Positions 2,189 to 56,443 of a stretch of DNA of 64,000 nt are shown in pieces (within the stretch, counting starts at the first letter, position 1; every line of letters starts with the position of its first letter). The notes beneath the pieces are model-generated. The model was given only the letters and a program-made list of their open reading frames with translations. It was not told where the DNA came from and ran no database searches. Location of the stretch: sequence record OP555981.1; one strand, given 5' to 3'. This DNA is from Escherichia phage vB_EcoM-UFV10. A program made the translations under genes and the position numbers.

Positions 2189-2392
2189 TTAATTCATATT
2201 ACGCTTAATAACTTCGGCAACTTCTAGTAGTTCATCTTTAGTTGCGGTGTCGGATTGAATTTTATCTCTAATATCCTTAAAGCGGTTTTTAAATTCTTCG
2301 GCTTCTCCCATATCGAAAAAGCGTTGAATGATTCTATATTCTCGATGAACTGCTTTATCAAAAAGTTCTAAATTTACTTTATATGATTTCAT
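2189..2392 (-). CDS. small protein downstream of rIIA (rIIA.1-like)
   Basis: 67-aa ORF with ATG start, directly downstream of an early promoter; synteny. Confidence 0.55.
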
Positions 2393-2417
2393 TTCAATAT
2401 CCTCATTTGCCCAATTA

Positions 2418-2447
2418 ATTATACCACATCCTTGTGGTAAAGTAAAC
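2418..2447 (-). promoter_or_regulatory. early promoter (sigma70-like -35 GTTTAC / -10 TATAAT) for rIIA.1
   Basis: minus strand GTTTAC-17bp-TATAAT; spacer holds palindrome CCACAAGGATGTGG; approximate coordinates. Confidence 0.55.
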
Positions 2448-4264
2448 TACTGGCTCATCCATTCTTTACGAAGGTCAGCATTATCTCCCATGAGCATTTC
2501 AAAAAGCTCTTTCCAATTCTCAGGAAGTTTAACAACATCATATACTGGGTTTTGAATCATCTCACGATATTCAGATTTTTCCAAAGAGCCAAGTCCTTTA
2601 ATATAACGGATGCTATGTTTAGGTAGAGCATCTTTGGCACTCTCATATTCAGCGACTGTATAAAACCATTCTTGTTTTTTACCGACCTGAGCGATGATTA
2701 CAGGAGTTTTGACAAAGCGAATTCGTCCTTGCTCAAACAATTCTGGCCAATTACTAAAAAATCCGAGCAGAGAAGGATAAATGCTTCCTAAACCATCATG
2801 GTCAGCATCGGTCATAATAGCAATATTATGATAATTCAAGTTTTCAGCTTTTTCACCAAGAACTAATCCAGTGATTGCGCAAATATCAAACAGTTCTTTG
2901 TTTTTAAGCATATCAGCATATGACATACCCCAGCTATTAAGAACTTTACCACGCAATGGATAACCACCGTGAAGTTCTTTATCACGAACATCAATAAGAT
3001 ATCCGATAGCAGAATCACCCTCAGTCAAGAAAAGAGTAGTGTCAGCATCTTTACCACAAAGATTCGCTTTGATATGTTTATGAACCTTAGCTTTAGAAGC
3101 CTTTTTAGCTGCTTTAGTTTCTGCTGCTTTTTCTGCCGCCAATTTACGAGCAAGGGCAGCTTCAATGATTGGCATTAAAATTGCTTCATTATTTAGAATA
3201 GCGCGTGAAATCTTTTTAGCATCAAGTTGAATATGACTACGAATTTCGCCAAATGGAGAAGTCAAACGCTCTTTAGTTTGAGAATCAAATCGCATGTTTT
3301 TCATATCACGGACAAACATAACGATAGTCAAACATTCTTTGACACGTGCTTTAGTCACATCAATTTTGAACTTACGTTTGATTTGTGGAATAAGGTCTTC
3401 ACAAATATCATCCATAACACAGTCAATGTGATGGCCACCATTCTTAGTGTGAATGTTATTCACATAAGTTAATTGACGAAATCCATCCGGTGAACGACCA
3501 ACAGCAATAGAACAATTTTCTTGTTCTTGAACAATAGCATGTTCATCATACTGTCGTGCATATTTCTTAAAATTGCCCTGAACCTTTTTACCATTAAAGG
3601 TAAATTGAATATCAGGATAAACAACAGCAAGTGTCTGGAGACGATCTAGTGTAATGTCAAGATAAACTTGGGACAGCTCATTAGTTTCAAATGACATAAA
3701 ATCTGGAATGAAAGTAACACGAGTTCCTTTCCATTTTCCAGGAATAGTTTCCCAGGATTTATTTTCCATGCCATTTGAACAACGAACTACAATATTATTT
3801 TGACCATCGCCAGTTTCACCGACAAACATCACAGAAAAAATGTTAGTTAAACTAGAACCAACACCATTCATACCACCGGTGACGCGTTCTTTATCATCAC
3901 CAAAGTTACCACCCGCTTTTGGAATAGTCCATGCAGCAACAGGACCAGGAATTTCTTCACCGGTAGGTGTTTTAACCATCGCTTGCGGAATACCGCGACC
4001 GTTATCTTCAACTGTCACCTGATTATTTTTAATGGTAACATTAATTTTATTCGCGAATTTAAACTTAGTACGAATACCTTCATCGACTGAGTTATCGATA
4101 ATTTCATCAATAAGCTTAACAAGACCAGGTACATACTGAACACTTTCCCATTTACCAAACAGAAAGCGCTCATGCATTTCATTAGCAGAAGAGCCAATGT
4201 ACATGCCACTACGCTTTTTGATATGTTCAATATCGCTCAGAATTTTAATTTCATTCTTAATCAT
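2447..4264 (-). CDS. 39: DNA topoisomerase II large subunit, GyrB-like ATPase, single fused 39+60 ORF
   Basis: 605 aa from ATG (track ORF begins one codon earlier at GTG); MIKNEIKILSDIEHIKKRSGMYIGS, GHKL and toprim-like regions; continuous ORF with no gene 60 or mobA. Confidence 0.9.
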   Translation of the reverse strand: MIKNEIKILSDIEHIKKRSGMYIGSSANEMHERFLFGKWESVQYVPGLVKLIDEIIDNSVDEGIRTKFKFANKINVTIKNNQVTVEDNGRGIPQAMVKTPTGEEIPGPVAAWTIPKAGGNFGDDKERVTGGMNGVGSSLTNIFSVMFVGETGDGQNNIVVRCSNGMENKSWETIPGKWKGTRVTFIPDFMSFETNELSQVYLDITLDRLQTLAVVYPDIQFTFNGKKVQGNFKKYARQYDEHAIVQEQENCSIAVGRSPDGFRQLTYVNNIHTKNGGHHIDCVMDDICEDLIPQIKRKFKIDVTKARVKECLTIVMFVRDMKNMRFDSQTKERLTSPFGEIRSHIQLDAKKISRAILNNEAILMPIIEAALARKLAAEKAAETKAAKKASKAKVHKHIKANLCGKDADTTLFLTEGDSAIGYLIDVRDKELHGGYPLRGKVLNSWGMSYADMLKNKELFDICAITGLVLGEKAENLNYHNIAIMTDADHDGLGSIYPSLLGFFSNWPELFEQGRIRFVKTPVIIAQVGKKQEWFYTVAEYESAKDALPKHSIRYIKGLGSLEKSEYREMIQNPVYDVVKLPENWKELFEMLMGDNADLRKEWMSQ

Positions 4265-4292
4265 CACTTATCCTCGTTTGGTTTCGGGAATA

Positions 4293-4974: not shown

Positions 4975-4976
4975 AA

Positions 4977-5153
4977 TTACCCTTTAAGTAAATCGTAAAA
5001 TCCACCATTCACATGCTTAGGAGCAGAAGGCCGACGAGTAGACAAACGATGACATTTAGGACAAACATCATTTTCTCGTTCAGAAATCTTTTTAATTTTT
5101 TCATATTCATGCCCGCAATCTTCGGATTGGCATTTATAATCATACATTGGCAT
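4977..5153 (-). CDS. small zinc-ribbon protein (CxxC...CxxC)
   Basis: 58-aa ORF below the track cutoff, read by hand: MPMYDYKCQSEDCGHEYEKIKKISERENDVCPKCHRL...; fits exactly between neighbouring genes. Confidence 0.5.
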   Translation of the reverse strand: MPMYDYKCQSEDCGHEYEKIKKISERENDVCPKCHRLSTRRPSAPKHVNGGFYDLLKG

Positions 5154-6151: not shown

Positions 6152-6176
6152 TAGTTTTATGAAAAAATTTTAAACT

Positions 6177-15165: not shown

Positions 15166-15180
15166 CGGTAAAATGAAAAA

Positions 15181-15200
15181 AGGACTCCCGAAGGAGTCCT
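15181..15200 (-). terminator. UUCG-tetraloop hairpin after soc
   Basis: AGGACTCC-cgaa-GGAGTCCT, 8-bp stem, followed on minus strand by a T-run. Confidence 0.65.
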
Positions 15201-45985: not shown

Positions 45986-46375
45986 TTAATCCAAAATATT
46001 ATTAGGCATTGGTTGAACACTCACAAGTTCTTTAAAGAACTCAGTAGAGTCAGGCAATTTAACCATTTCCGGAGCATGCTTACTGAATTTATGTTTACAT
46101 TGACGGCATTTATATTCAAGCTCTGGTTTACGCCAGTTAATCAATTGAACTTGTTCAGTACCGCATTCAGGGCAATTAGGAACGTTTTTAGAAGCTCTTT
46201 CACGTCGTTCAACCATAGCCATAATAGCATCCCATGCTGGAGGTTTAAAATCTAAATCGTCGCAGCCGTGAATCTTTCCACGCATTTCCATATCATCTTC
46301 CTCACCAGCCATAATAATTTTAATTAGACTAGAATTACTTGAAGCTGCAATGTCTTCTAATAAACGCTTTTTCAT
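45986..46375 (-). CDS. zinc-ribbon protein
   Basis: 129 aa; CPECGTEQ...CRQCKHKF. Confidence 0.45.
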
Positions 46376-47298
46376 TTCAATACCTCAATAGCATTACGTA
46401 AACCATTTGCTTTTGCGTTAAGAGATTTTAACAATTTGGTGTGTTCTGCAATTTGGGCTTCAACTTCAATCAAACGGGCATTGAGATATTCGCGTTCTTC
46501 TTTCATAGTATCATTCCCATGATTGGGTTTTGGTGCAGATTTAAATTCACTAGGGTCCTTTAACTTAATAACAAATTTAGTTTCAAACAGTGAAAGACCA
46601 TAATTCGTATTATCATCAAAGGATTTAACTACATCCATATTAGATAATAACTCATGCAAATTATAAGACAAAGAACTAATAGTTTCATTGTGTTTATTAG
46701 CTTCGCGTGGTTTCATATACGGAAGATTTTTATATATCTCATGCGGAGCACAAATGATAATTGACAATTCAAATTGTCCATTCTGGGACGATGGAGTGAA
46801 TTTAGCCGTAACCCAGTCTTTTACATTCACATTAATAGTACGGTTATCACCATGACAAAACAATCTACGAGAATGCTTAAAAAGCATATTCACGTTATTA
46901 TTGAATTCGTGTGAAAATTCACTGGCAAATTTTTCTTTACTATCTTTAGAAAACCATTCTTCTAAATAAGTTCTTTTCACGTCGTTAATAATATTAAATG
47001 TAACAACATTAGCATTTGATACATTAGTCTCAATGTAGCTTGGATACATAAATTTTTTAACATTATTAACAGCTATCACAGAAGATAGTAATCGGGAACG
47101 TTTGAACCACTCGAGCAAAGAACCAAGAGAATGTGAATACGCGTTTTGCGTATCTTTACAAATATGGTTTTCCCATCCAATATAGTCTAAAAAATCACGA
47201 AGAATATTATTGATTACTGCTCTGTGTCCTATCTGATAATTACGATGTTTAGTAATAAGACTGTCAAAATAATCAATATAATGTTTACGAGTTTTCAT
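46372..47298 (-). CDS. paralog family member 1 (C-terminal coiled coil)
   Basis: 308 aa; C-terminal heptad-like [42 protein letters not shown]. Confidence 0.5.
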   Translation of the reverse strand: MKTRKHYIDYFDSLITKHRNYQIGHRAVINNILRDFLDYIGWENHICKDTQNAYSHSLGSLLEWFKRSRLLSSVIAVNNVKKFMYPSYIETNVSNANVVTFNIINDVKRTYLEEWFSKDSKEKFASEFSHEFNNNVNMLFKHSRRLFCHGDNRTINVNVKDWVTAKFTPSSQNGQFELSIIICAPHEIYKNLPYMKPREANKHNETISSLSYNLHELLSNMDVVKSFDDNTNYGLSLFETKFVIKLKDPSEFKSAPKPNHGNDTMKEEREYLNARLIEVEAQIAEHTKLLKSLNAKANGLRNAIEVLK

Positions 47299-47352
47299 GT
47301 TCTTCTCACTTGGTTAATGATTTATACTCCGAGCCATCCTTGGCTTTAAATT

Positions 47353-48354
47353 TTACTTAATTAACTGTAAAGCTTGTTCAAGACGATCAAGACGATTAAC
47401 GGATTCTTCCCAAATCTTTTTAGCCTTCTCATATTCTTTCTGTGCTTTATTAGAAATTTCTAGAGCTCCTTTATAAGCTTTTTCTAATGCAATAATTTCT
47501 GGACGAATTTCTACCGGTTCAGGCGAATCATCAAGATTATCCATTAGTTCCTCAAGGGTAGTTTCTTCTTTAGGGGTATTCACAATTTCTTCGCATTTTT
47601 GTTGGTAAATTTCTTTATCAGTCGGTGAATACGCACATTTCACTTCACGAAGACTAACTACAATTTTGTATCCTTCCCAACCACACATATTCTTAAAAGG
47701 ATATGTATGAATATTTTCTACTGTTTCCATACAAAGTAATGCAGTCTCTAACTGACGAGTTATAGTGCTAGCAATTGAGAAAAATTTATTAATATTCTTT
47801 TGGTTAGCGTTTGGTGTAAAAAATCCATAATTCACAAAAATAGCTACTTTATTTTCGTCAAGCTCATATTCTTTTACGATAATCATATCAGAAGCCAAAG
47901 GATGAATTTGACGATAATCGCCATAACATAATTTAGAAGCTGATTTTAGAATTTGTCCTTTGAAAAGTCTGAAATTACTAATCCAACGACGAGTAAAAAT
48001 ATTCTCAGGGTCTTCTTTATTATTAAGATGATAAGAATTAACATCACCGAACCAATTGTATCCTACTACATTTTTAGTTCGTTTAATTTCTTTCCCAAAT
48101 TTACCAAGAATATCTCTGTTAACTAAATATGAAAGAAGACGAGACCCTTTAAAGGTTTCCTTAATATCATCTTTATCTGCACGACTAGAAATTTTATGAA
48201 CTTCATGAATAAATTTGCTGGAAGAAACAATGCTTGCATCAGTATTATTGAGCCATTGATTGATAATAGAAATAACACTATTCTGACTAGACATAGGTTT
48301 AACTTTATCATCAATAACGCTATTGAATGATTTGATATATTCGTTGCGAGTCAT
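47353..48354 (-). CDS. paralog family member 2 (C-terminal coiled coil)
   Basis: 333 aa from ATG MTRNEY behind GAGGAG; the track ATG is the G of the promoter -10; shares SRLLS motif with member 1. Confidence 0.5.
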   Translation of the reverse strand: MTRNEYIKSFNSVIDDKVKPMSSQNSVISIINQWLNNTDASIVSSSKFIHEVHKISSRADKDDIKETFKGSRLLSYLVNRDILGKFGKEIKRTKNVVGYNWFGDVNSYHLNNKEDPENIFTRRWISNFRLFKGQILKSASKLCYGDYRQIHPLASDMIIVKEYELDENKVAIFVNYGFFTPNANQKNINKFFSIASTITRQLETALLCMETVENIHTYPFKNMCGWEGYKIVVSLREVKCAYSPTDKEIYQQKCEEIVNTPKEETTLEELMDNLDDSPEPVEIRPEIIALEKAYKGALEISNKAQKEYEKAKKIWEESVNRLDRLEQALQLIK

Positions 48355-48383
48355 ATTAATCTCCTCAGTAGAAAGTAAGAACA

Positions 48384-48412
48384 TTATACCACATCCTTGT
48401 GGCGAAGTAAAC
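48384..48412 (-). promoter_or_regulatory. early promoter, near-duplicate of the one at 2418-2447
   Basis: minus strand GTTTAC-spacer with CCACAAGGATGTGG-TATAAT; 20-bp core identical to the rIIA.1 promoter. Confidence 0.55.
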
Positions 48413-49431
48413 TAGTTTAGTGCATTTAGTGCATTGTTCAATTTAGAACGTTGCTTTGTCAGATTTTGAACCCTTGACTGAGCTTGTTCTAACACCTTTT
48501 CAGCTTCTAGCACTTCATTGGTCGCTTTAATGAGTTCAGCATCTACTGCCTTAAGAGACTTCTCAATCGCGTCAGCGTGCCATTTTTCTACAGGTTTAAA
48601 ATTTGAATTTTCAGTAGGAAGAAAATTCACTTTATTAAATTTCCATGCATCTTTATTACCTGAGCTATACATCCAAAATTTAGGATCGTTTGATGAGCAA
48701 TTAGATAAATTTAAGTTATCTTGTACTTCCTGCTTTTTCTCTTGCGGGACTTCATCCTTTCTCAAAAAATCGTATTTAAATGAAACGATCATATCAAGTT
48801 CATACGTTGTTGTATGTTCCCAATTTCGCTCAAAATGAGGTAAAATCTTAGACTGAACAGCGGCAACAACATCCATATACTTAAATGCTTCTGTCAACTG
48901 TGATTTAAGGCATTCACAAATTGAAAGAGAATTTTTTGTATTAGGCTTAAAGCTAATTCGTGCAGTTCTATTATTTTCTTTTAACGGTCTTACTTCCATC
49001 TGAAGAGTATAACCATCAAATTTCAGGTTCTTTAAGTTAATGTCAGAACCTTTTAATCGACTAGCAGTAGACAAAATTTGCTTTAATTGTTTACGGAATA
49101 AAGCAATAAATCTCCATTCAAGACGATAATGATTTGGATTAAAAAATCCTGTTGATAAATCAACCTTACTCTGACCAACGCCTTGAACAAATAGAGGATT
49201 TTTATAATCAATAGTTTTACAGAAATCGGTGAGCTGCTCACGAGCAGTCATTTGTGTAATATATCCCGCTTTACTAAAATGACGTAACCATTCACTGCTA
49301 TTCATATACTTAAAGTGAATGGAACTATTAACTCTATCAGGGTCTAAATTATTTTGGCACAAAAATGTCATAACATTACGGGTATAGCTAGCATTACGAA
49401 CCATATCTTCAATTTGAGAACGAGTTTTCAT
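48412..49431 (-). CDS. paralog family member 3 (C-terminal coiled coil)
   Basis: 339 aa; N-terminus MKTRSQIEDM resembles member 1 MKTRKHYIDY; C-terminal coiled coil. Confidence 0.5.
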   Translation of the reverse strand: MKTRSQIEDMVRNASYTRNVMTFLCQNNLDPDRVNSSIHFKYMNSSEWLRHFSKAGYITQMTAREQLTDFCKTIDYKNPLFVQGVGQSKVDLSTGFFNPNHYRLEWRFIALFRKQLKQILSTASRLKGSDINLKNLKFDGYTLQMEVRPLKENNRTARISFKPNTKNSLSICECLKSQLTEAFKYMDVVAAVQSKILPHFERNWEHTTTYELDMIVSFKYDFLRKDEVPQEKKQEVQDNLNLSNCSSNDPKFWMYSSGNKDAWKFNKVNFLPTENSNFKPVEKWHADAIEKSLKAVDAELIKATNEVLEAEKVLEQAQSRVQNLTKQRSKLNNALNALN

Positions 49432-49439
49432 AGTGTTCC

Positions 49440-50327
49440 TTAAGATTTAAGTAAATCAACAATTTTAATTAATTTTTCACGCTCAGATTTAGCTTTACTA
49501 CTCAATCCAGATAGTCTGAAAATTTCATCGTCATACTGTTGAATAGAAATATTTAGCTCTTCAATTTGCTTATTAAAATAATCAATTTGCTCAGAATGTT
49601 TTTCATTACTGCGAACTGGTATAGGGTTTGTAGGCAATTTAGTTGAACTAGATTCATCCGGGCGATAAATTAAAATACAACTTGAACCAATTGGACATTT
49701 TGCACCAGATGAATATTCTAATGTTCCGGCTTCTTTTAAAACTTCAAAAGCTAAACAGAGATGATGCCCCATATTAACATAATCTGTAGAGCGAGCTCTG
49801 ATGTAATAATCATCTCCGCGAATACTAAATTTAAAGCATTTAAGGTCTTCTGTATTATTGGTCTTAAAAATCATTTGTTTATCTAGACCTTTAGCTAATC
49901 GAGCGCCTAATGCTAATAATCGTCGTTGATTTTCCCACAAATCTGCGATCATTTGGTCAAATGATAATTTCGGCATTAGTCGACCATAAAGGTCATATCC
50001 TTTATTATAATTACGAAGGATTTCACTCGCGTTAATACGAGACAATGCTCCAATTTTATTAAGGGCTTTCATAATGCGATTAGATAAACCCATTCCAGAC
50101 CCGTTTGTTCGCTGCAAATGTTTTTCTAATCCAAATCCAATATCAACTTTAAACTTATCTAAAATTTCTGCATGAACATCTCTGTCAATAACATTCAAAT
50201 CCAAAGTTGGGTTAAATCTATGAAAAAATTTATCTGGCTCTCCACGACGAAGTACAGTCCATTCATTCATTTTTTTATTAACTAAAGATTTAATTACTGT
50301 ATTGACATTATTAATTACTACTGACAT
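49440..50327 (-). CDS. paralog family member 4 (C-terminal coiled coil)
   Basis: 295 aa from ATG behind GAGGAA (track start is TTG); C-terminal coiled coil. Confidence 0.45.
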   Translation of the reverse strand: MSVVINNVNTVIKSLVNKKMNEWTVLRRGEPDKFFHRFNPTLDLNVIDRDVHAEILDKFKVDIGFGLEKHLQRTNGSGMGLSNRIMKALNKIGALSRINASEILRNYNKGYDLYGRLMPKLSFDQMIADLWENQRRLLALGARLAKGLDKQMIFKTNNTEDLKCFKFSIRGDDYYIRARSTDYVNMGHHLCLAFEVLKEAGTLEYSSGAKCPIGSSCILIYRPDESSSTKLPTNPIPVRSNEKHSEQIDYFNKQIEELNISIQQYDDEIFRLSGLSSKAKSEREKLIKIVDLLKS

Positions 50328-50334
50328 ATTTTCC

Positions 50335-50742
50335 TCACTCAATTTCAATTTTACTAAATATACAGAATATGATGGAAAAGACTATATAAGCACCACAAAC
50401 AGATTGAACTAATACCATTCCAAAGAACCAAACAATATTATCAAACCATGTCTGTTTTACGTCGAAAGGACGTAAACTTACAGTAATATTATCACCTTTT
50501 TCTATTGAAGAATACATCTCTGGGGAAATATATTCACTAAATCTATAACCGTCTTTGAGTTCATATACAGCAATAAACGATAAACTAGACCCCTTTCCTT
50601 GTGTTCCTGTAATAGTATTAACTACAGTAACATCATAATCTTTATAATGCATATAATCATTAATTGCGTAATAACCATATGCAACTACTACACATAAACA
50701 ACATATCAATAAATTCAATCTTTTAATTATCAACTGTTTCAT
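50335..50742 (-). CDS. membrane protein (two TM segments flanking a soluble domain)
   Basis: 135 aa; hydrophobic N- and C-terminal segments; MotA-box promoter upstream. Confidence 0.45.
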   Translation of the reverse strand: MKQLIIKRLNLLICCLCVVVAYGYYAINDYMHYKDYDVTVVNTITGTQGKGSSLSFIAVYELKDGYRFSEYISPEMYSSIEKGDNITVSLRPFDVKQTWFDNIVWFFGMVLVQSVCGAYIVFSIIFCIFSKIEIE

Positions 50743-52792: not shown

Positions 52793-52822
52793 ATAGTACC
52801 ATAAAGCTTTATGCTTGTAAAC
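52793..52822 (-). promoter_or_regulatory. early promoter for the ATPase gene
   Basis: minus strand GTTTAC-18bp-TACTAT then leader ...GGAGAATAAAATG; follows the hairpin at 52854-52871. Confidence 0.5.
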
Positions 52823-56410: not shown

Positions 56411-56425
56411 CGGTAAAATGAAAAA

Positions 56426-56443
56426 AGTCTCCCGAAGGAGACT
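56426..56443 (-). terminator. UUCG-tetraloop hairpin
   Basis: AGTCTCC-cgaa-GGAGACT; flank identical to the soc terminator cassette, stem differs by compensatory changes. Confidence 0.55.

Follow-up and report, generated by a model that had tools for sequence, protein, structure and literature searches.

Two early promoters of a Tequatrovirus share a hairpin-bearing spacer of the PeSL kind

Our analysis shows that two early promoters in the stretch of Escherichia phage DNA analysed here (64,000 nucleotides; the window) carry the same inverted repeat between their -35 and -10 elements, and that this shared feature is genuine and not due to chance. It represents a local case of the promoter-early stem-loop (PeSL) cassettes that have already been described and not a new regulator site. 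In our judgment, both sites are probably copies of one sub-family of T4-type early-promoter cassettes of the PeSL kind, with a hairpin that would act by analogy with the published ones. As promoters, the two sites are nothing out of the ordinary and are of the well-understood T4 early type.

Over its full length, the window matches positions 1-64000 of Escherichia phages vB_EcoM-UFV06 and UFV09 (genus Tequatrovirus) with 100% identity, and statements about the whole genome refer to the window plus the remainder of UFV06 (165,858 bp). Site 1, which separates gene 39 (coding for the large subunit of topoisomerase II) from rIIA.1, reads GTTTAC-TTTA-CCACAAGGATGTGG-TATAAT on the minus strand (2447..2418); site 2, in the nrdC.x region between nrdC.5 and nrdC.4, reads GTTTAC-TTCG-CCACAAGGATGTGG-TATAAT on the same strand (48412..48383). 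A genome-wide search of the kind suggested in the earlier note found the exact 14-mer CCACAAGGATGTGG at these two places only in the 165,858 bp. At both sites the upstream gene ends in TAG, and this stop codon shares its G with GTTTAC. At site 1 this is the stop of gene 39 (2447..2449; ORF 2447..4267, minus strand, as annotated in identical records), whose G is the first base of the -35 element (2442..2447; bases kept in 30-32 of the 32 other early promoters). It is followed by the 5' arm of the hairpin, TACCACA (2433..2439, core CCACA at 2433-2437), the loop AGGA (2429..2432; wGGA is conserved across genera), the 3' arm TGTGGTA (2422..2428), in which TGTGG (2424-2428) doubles as the extended -10 (TRTGn) according to column frequencies, and the -10 hexamer TATAAT (2418..2423). 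The Shine-Dalgarno sequence GAGGA (2400-2404) and the ATG (2390-2392) of rIIA.1 come next (2390..2404), and spacing alone places the predicted transcription start near 2411. At site 2, the stop of nrdC.5 (48412..48414) overlaps the -35 of the nrdC.4 promoter (48407..48412), and the 5' arm GCCACA (48398..48403, core CCACA at 48398-48402), the loop AGGA (48394..48397), the 3' arm TGTGGT (48388..48393, with TGTGG at 48389-48393 as the extended -10) and the -10 hexamer TATAAT (48383..48388) follow. The first base of this hexamer, T48388, closes a G.U pair with G48403. The nrdC.4 Shine-Dalgarno sequence GAGGAG (48361-48366) and ATG (48352-48354) complete the unit (48352..48366); the longest listed nrdC.4 ORF starts at 48384, within the promoter, and the ATG at 48354 is probably where translation truly starts. 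The gene that the earlier note called paralog member 2 is nrdC.4, one of four similar-sized ORFs at 46372-50348 (the nrdC.3 to nrdC.6 region) that it regarded as paralogs; this finds no support in a pairwise BLASTP of nrdC.4 against nrdC.5, which is not significant (E about 0.4), so that the paralogy, if real, is remote. Within the nrdC.3 to nrdC.6 region, only nrdC.4 has its own early promoter.

That both sites are early promoters, as previously proposed, is borne out by the order of their elements: a -35 GTTTAC, a 17-bp spacer, TGn and TATAAT, with a Shine-Dalgarno sequence and an ATG downstream. Both have a sigma-70 promoter score of 10/12 with TG before the -10, with TGG at -15..-13 as the extended -10 (TGn), and both have the right strand and position, a short way ahead of an early gene's Shine-Dalgarno sequence and start codon. 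T4 early promoters consist of UP, -35, TGn and -10 elements with additional consensus regions (Hinton 2010, PMC2988021); they read GTTTAC at -36..-31, and a stretch rich in G and T precedes -12 on the 5' side (Nolan et al. 2006, PMC1524935). Like these promoters, which are read by the unmodified host sigma-70 polymerase, sites 1 and 2 have GTTTAC at -36..-31, TGn and TATAAT; unlike them, both lack an A/T-rich UP element at -40..-60, because the 3' end of a coding sequence lies there, and their positions -26..-18 are specific to a sub-family and fall outside the class consensus. Promoter matrices, including one iterated to convergence over the complete genome, recover 34-36 sites on the early strand (36 with the iterated matrix) and none on the opposite strand, and both sites are among them. 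Their full-matrix scores of 28 and 33 are low within the set (range, 14-60), in which promoters with aaaaatttttcacaaa upstream score up to 60. In T4, site 1 is unchanged and site 2 differs by one spacer base (TTTG for TTCG), and in Yersinia phages fPS-2 and fPS-90 both sequences are annotated as "predicted early promoter." Judging from the sequence, it is nearly certain that both sites are promoters used by host sigma-70 polymerase. An antisense extended -10 promoter (TGTGG then TAAAGT at site 1) was rejected because the key bases are missing at site 2 (CGAAGT) and in the JS98-type sequence (TGTTGT).

The two promoters had been reported to share an identical 20-bp core, and this holds: the core, CCACAAGGATGTGGTATAAT, is the same at both sites, as is the upstream TAGTTTACTT, giving 30 identical bases out of 32. 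Their spacers agree at 16 of 18 positions, compared with a mean of 7.05 (sd, 2.3) over 561 early-promoter pairs. Since four other promoter pairs in the genome share 15-18 of 18 spacer bases, near-identical pairs are recurrent there. A second pair of early promoters, at genome positions 118704 and 134012 on the minus strand, is identical over more than 50 bp (GTTTACaagtccctcgtgttgtgtTATAATaatcttactgacataacatgagga); duplicated promoter cassettes are therefore not peculiar to sites 1 and 2. Part of the identity is what the class prescribes. Positions -36..-31 and -17..-7 (TGTGGTATAAT) fit the class consensus and cover 11 of the 20 "core" bases; among the other 32 promoters, T-17 occurs in 69%, G-16 in 56%, T-15 and G-14 in 88% each, and G-13 in 50%. 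For these positions we accept the simple view that both promoters are near consensus. For positions -26..-18 (CCACAAGGA) that view is ruled out: each base occurs in 6-41% of the other 32 promoters, and their joint frequency is about 1e-6. Because CCACAAGGA departs from the class consensus, the identity of the two sites is not a matter of chance, and because its bases are at background frequency, -26..-18 belongs to a sub-family and not to the class.

These comparisons bear on a serious rival, namely, that the hairpin has no function at all. The two sites would then be recent copies, made by duplication or gene conversion, of a strong promoter in which TGTGG is retained for its role as extended -10; CCACA would be a mere passenger that may have stayed complementary through template-switch mutation. 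The frequency of near-identical promoter pairs, including the 118704/134012 pair, speaks for this explanation, as does the fact that TGTGGTATAAT is class consensus. A degenerate copy in phage CJY920 (79768; CAACAaggacTATGG) also fits it, as the hairpin is broken there and a good promoter is kept intact. We nevertheless regard it as rather unlikely in view of the properties of the repeats themselves, which we describe below.

The earlier note had spoken of a 14-bp palindrome between -35 and -10. An inverted repeat is indeed present at that position; a perfect palindrome is not, as the reverse complement of CCACAAGGATGTGG is CCACATCCTTGTGG. In CCACAAGGATGTGG, two 5-bp arms, CCACA and TGTGG, form an inverted repeat and enclose AGGA, which is not symmetric. 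When flanking bases are included, the stem grows to 7 bp at site 1 (TACCACA/TGTGGTA) and to 6 bp, including the G.U pair, at site 2, and the predicted RNA hairpin energies are -8.2 kcal/mol (z, -3.6) and -7.2 kcal/mol (z, -2.9), respectively.

Inverted repeats are more frequent in the early promoters than base composition predicts. Promoters were drawn with a spacer-masked matrix, and therefore spacer content could not bias their selection; the null for the repeat counts was a column permutation, which preserves column composition. Perfect inverted repeats of at least 5 bp within the spacer occur in 6 of the 34 UFV06 promoters (expected, 1.09; P = 0.0007), in 3 of 23 in Jiaodavirus W14-4 (expected, 0.50; P = 0.012) and in 8 of 31 in Mosigvirus TH12 (expected, 1.57; P = 0.0007). 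One further early promoter in the window (52793..52822, minus strand; GTTTAC aagCATAAagctTTATGg TACTAT) carries a different spacer-internal inverted repeat. Inverted repeats of at least 6 bp that span the -10 are likewise in excess, with 9/34 in UFV06 (expected, 1.16), 6/23 in W14-4 (expected, 0.76) and 9/31 in TH12 (expected, 1.54); in each genome, 0/1,000 permutations reach the count. Such an enrichment in three genera over a composition-preserving null argues against a repeat without function. In the -10-spanning repeats the left arm lies in the spacer and the right arm just past the -10, as in the 13-bp repeat ATCAGTAGTTGAT...ATCAACTACTGAT of the promoter at 6152. On the minus strand of the window, their -35 elements are at 6152, 6742 and 63633, and elsewhere in the genome they are found at 70615, 70978, 127668, 130688, 142452 and 146753. 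Their stems vary by genus at apparently equivalent promoters (GGGACC/GGTCCC versus GGGAGC/GCTCC and TGAGAGC/GCTCTCA).

The stems of the spacer-internal hairpins change in sequence and yet stay paired, which also speaks against the no-function explanation. Within the TH12 genome alone there are five different arm sequences, all self-complementary (CCACAA-GGA-TTGTGG, ACACCA-AGGA-TGGTGT, ACACA-TGGA-TGTGT, CACCA-AGGA-TGGTG and AACCA-AGGA-TGGTT), and UFV06 has the variant ACACC-AAGGAC-GGTGT. Across the elements, loop length ranges from 3 to 6 nt, and the position relative to the -10 differs by 0-4 nt. In an alignment of 11 distinct elements (A1), which was assembled after the inverted repeats had been noticed, takes three rows from a pattern search with fixed arms and leaves out the copies with 5-nt loops as well as the broken copy CJY920 79768, 88% of cells are paired versus 67% in shuffles (0/500), and 13 cells are changed on both sides versus 5.0 in shuffles (0/500); because promoters are related by descent, these shuffle statistics overstate independence. 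The slid controls of A1 are 18-53% paired. The variable inner pairs 3-5 are 100% paired and include 4, 4 and 2 double changes, i.e., compensatory changes in the stem. Complementary arms could be maintained in the absence of selection by template-switch (quasipalindrome) mutation; selection on the hairpin is likely.

Because the arms change and stay complementary while loop and position shift, the variation points to base pairing in a single strand and not to a fixed operator; it also argues against a specific polymerase contact for the 5' arm. The earlier note had proposed a binding site for a phage or host regulator, i.e., an operator at which a dimeric protein would bind the double-stranded spacer and repress or time a subset of early promoters. 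Dyad symmetry, conservation and a position where a bound protein would block RNA polymerase are in line with this idea, as is the still unexplained mechanism by which T4 early promoters are shut off (PMC2988021). We nevertheless consider it highly improbable: arms that covary as in TH12, together with loops and distances that vary as above, do not provide the fixed half-site and geometry that an operator needs, and the element is present in only about 2-8 of the 23-34 promoters per genome. We know of no candidate regulator for this model. CRP half-sites (TGTGA-N6-TCACA) do not match in orientation and spacing, and a CRP-like site was therefore rejected. A target of RegB (GGAG/GGAU) in the loop was rejected as well, given that the loops AGGAC and TGGA and the AT-rich loops of marine relatives (see below) do not fit.

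The earlier note had also suggested that the repeat might form a hairpin in the non-template strand. The potential to form a hairpin is evident from enrichment and covariation; formation in the open complex is another matter, since the bubble spans only about -11 to +3 (Hinton 2010, PMC2988021) and the spacer thus stays double-stranded. A hairpin in the open complex is, accordingly, unlikely. The virion RNA polymerase of phage N4, which is N4's own enzyme, requires an extruded promoter hairpin. The N4 promoters resemble ours in having a 5-7 bp stem with a short loop within a phage early promoter and differ in that the host enzyme uses T4 early promoters in duplex form.

As the arms lie upstream of the start site, the hairpin is possible only in read-through RNA (from gene 39 or nrdC.5, respectively) or in single-stranded DNA. 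The hairpins are short (5-7 bp; -7 to -8 kcal/mol) and no U-tract follows the stem; in combination with a terminator scan that returned nothing at either site, this makes strong intrinsic termination unlikely. We rejected an intrinsic (Rho-independent) terminator because neither site has a G+C-rich stem with a U-run. At gathering thresholds, no Rfam covariance model matched anywhere in the window. Canonical intrinsic terminators, consisting of tccttcgggagtcc and a subsequent T-run, do exist on the minus strand at 15166-15195 and 56411-56440, directly upstream of the -35 of two other early promoters, which is the PeSL arrangement published for PST/T4.

Hairpins that include an internal promoter and occlude the ribosome binding site of a late gene are known from the T4 lysozyme gene (e), soc and I-TevI. 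They share with sites 1 and 2 that the stem-loop can form only in upstream read-through RNA, transcripts from the internal promoter lacking one or both arms. They differ in that sites 1 and 2 have both arms upstream of the start, and the Shine-Dalgarno sequence is 30-40 nt away from them.

Of about 483 Tequatrovirus records with the locus, about 479-484 have an exact site 1, with flanks that are about 98% identical; the site is thus more tightly conserved than its flanks, another point against a repeat without function. Site 2 has the exact TTCG form in 85 records, and T4 and most other sampled relatives have TTTG. A search for related loci with rIIA.1 and nrdC.4 returned five Tequatrovirus contigs only, and whole unannotated phage genomes were compared instead. 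As to whether the palindrome is absent from orthologous promoters of relatives, a point raised in the earlier note, the outcome is divided: after gene 39 in Mosigvirus, Gelderlandvirus and Jiaodavirus, the promoter is absent and a terminator-like hairpin takes its place, and the palindrome is present at other promoters of Mosigvirus and Jiaodavirus. CCACAAGGATGTGG occurs in the same register (GTTTAC to -10) upstream of cef and a second gene in Klebsiella Jiaodavirus phages; JS98-like and other enterobacterial T4-like contigs have it at one or two promoters, and the same element lies at non-orthologous early promoters in Jiaodavirus, Dhakavirus-like phages and Mosigvirus (TH12). Altogether, the hairpin sub-family, in which two stem arms flank a wGGA loop and the 3' arm serves as extended -10, is found in at least 4 enterobacterial T4-like genera. 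Among the copies of the 14-mer across genera, the arms are constant, with variation in the four bases that follow the -35, in the -10 hexamer and at the first position of the loop (A, T or C); this is a further point against a passenger.

Further copies extend the range of the element. Outside the window, UFV06 has CCACA-AGGAC-TGTGG in an early promoter (genome position 164024) and CCACA-TGGAG-TGTGG, with a 5-nt loop, in a MotA-box middle promoter (atGCTTCCACAtggagTGTGGTACTAT; 135187, minus strand); because a middle promoter of the MotA-box type carries the same arms, the element is not confined to early promoters. This middle promoter sits upstream of an RNA ligase gene. Marine contigs, recognised as T4-like by their gp32 and gp59 homologues, contain TTTAC-N4-CCACA-N4-TGTGG-TATAAT with AT-rich loops, directly upstream of gene 32 in contig L144 and elsewhere in contig L145. 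In several of the marine contigs (L144 at 4976-5036, L148, L149, L152 near 1601, L158, L169 and L172), a conserved non-coding stretch, aagtggataattcagtaa, follows the hairpin promoter; it precedes gene 32 in L144 and may be a leader or regulatory RNA. An orphan exact CCACAAGGATGTGG without a recognisable -35/-10 in the usual register, at 86056 in PQ349265.1 (CJY920), may be a cassette remnant. IMG/VR scans with the bare 14-mer and with AGTTGTTTAC-N18-TANNAT yielded mostly chance hits among the matches listed, and in the papers searched, the exact sequence matched only an unrelated primer.

The distribution of the cassettes raises the possibility that the hairpin is a DNA-level recombination signal, with extruded or single-stranded hairpins as preferred crossover points through which genes would pass from one cassette to another, as in the PeSL mini-circle model. 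The same cassette stands before unrelated genes in different genera, and twice or more in a single genome, and the place after gene 39 is without it in three other genera, both of which fit such a signal. A stem of 5-7 bp, however, is too short for stable cruciform extrusion. Moreover, sites 1 and 2 are 46 kb apart in direct orientation with essential genes between them, so that an exchange between the two would be lethal. We therefore think it very unlikely that recombination is what the hairpin is for, and regard a role of the hairpin in cassette recombination as possible within the preferred reading of a PeSL-type cassette. In Jiaodavirus (IMG/VR contig 2974754850; JD18), two unrelated genes, cef and an ORF starting with MKRCEL, lie behind almost identical cassettes of ~75 bp that run from an A-rich upstream region to the ATG. 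This pair is what the mobile-cassette model leads one to expect. From promoter to ATG, site 2 and the Jiaodavirus cef cassette have about 81% identity over 68 bp.

PeSLs were described in RB49/phi1 as units made up of an upstream stop codon, an A/T-rich region, a sigma-70-like early promoter, a stem-loop, a Shine-Dalgarno sequence and an ATG, the stem-loop being most often located between -35 and -10 (Arbiol et al. 2010, PMC2839356). Further PeSLs were found in PST/T4, with the promoter TTTACW-N17-TAYWAT, and in nt-1/KVP40; in PST/T4 the stem-loops (AGNA-loop-TCNT) lie just upstream of the promoter and not in the spacer (Comeau et al. 2014, PMC4122927). Sites 1 and 2 agree with this structural definition except for the A/T-rich region: each spans from an upstream stop codon, through a sigma-70-type early promoter with the stem-loop between -35 and -10, to a Shine-Dalgarno sequence and ATG. 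As in the published cassettes, the conserved motif is repeated in the genome before different, unrelated genes and in hyperplastic regions. Spacer-internal and -10-spanning repeats correspond to the two commonest PeSL sub-classes. There are differences as well. The stems at sites 1 and 2 are short and A/C-rich with a conserved wGGA loop, whereas published ones are polyG/polyC, and the published T4/PST stem-loops are upstream of the promoter. PeSLs have been proposed to attenuate upstream transcription, and one of them, a longer, G/C-rich stem-loop from RB49, cut lacZ read-through in an experimental test like rrnB T1 does; they also recombine and shuffle genes, with crossovers mapped in or near the loop (PMC2839356).

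Putting these observations together, we suggest the following. The cassette consists of the upstream stop, a GTTTAC -35, a 17-bp spacer, a TGn-extended -10, a Shine-Dalgarno sequence and an ATG, and host sigma-70 RNA polymerase would use it without phage factors to start early transcription of rIIA.1 (and rIIA) and of nrdC.4. The spacer also encodes a short predicted hairpin, the 3' arm of which, TGTGG, doubles as extended -10. Our best guess for its role, by analogy with the published PeSLs, is that it attenuates read-through transcripts, or protects their 3' end, shortly ahead of initiation at the next promoter. Homology for recombination would be a further contribution of the conserved cassette, and the near-identity of the two copies would be due to common descent (by duplication or recombination) and purifying selection.

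A bolder proposal is that the wGGA-loop hairpin is a specific recognition element for a putative phage or host factor, conserved across several Tevenvirinae genera; we hold this to be quite unlikely. Candidates for such a factor would be an RNA-binding or RNA-processing protein or a structure-specific recombination enzyme. If the proposal is true, it would link a defined set of early promoters, along with some middle ones, to read-through control or cassette mobility, and recognition of wGGA would be relevant to the as yet unexplained way in which T4 early transcription is shut off.

The new information is modest and consists in the cross-genus conservation and covariation of one hairpin sub-family and in the several-fold enrichment of promoter-embedded inverted repeats in each of three genera. 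On comparative grounds, our findings strengthen the PeSL idea outside the three phage pairs of its original description, and they provide a small, easily mutated element with which to tell whether such hairpins act on read-through RNA, in recombination or not at all.
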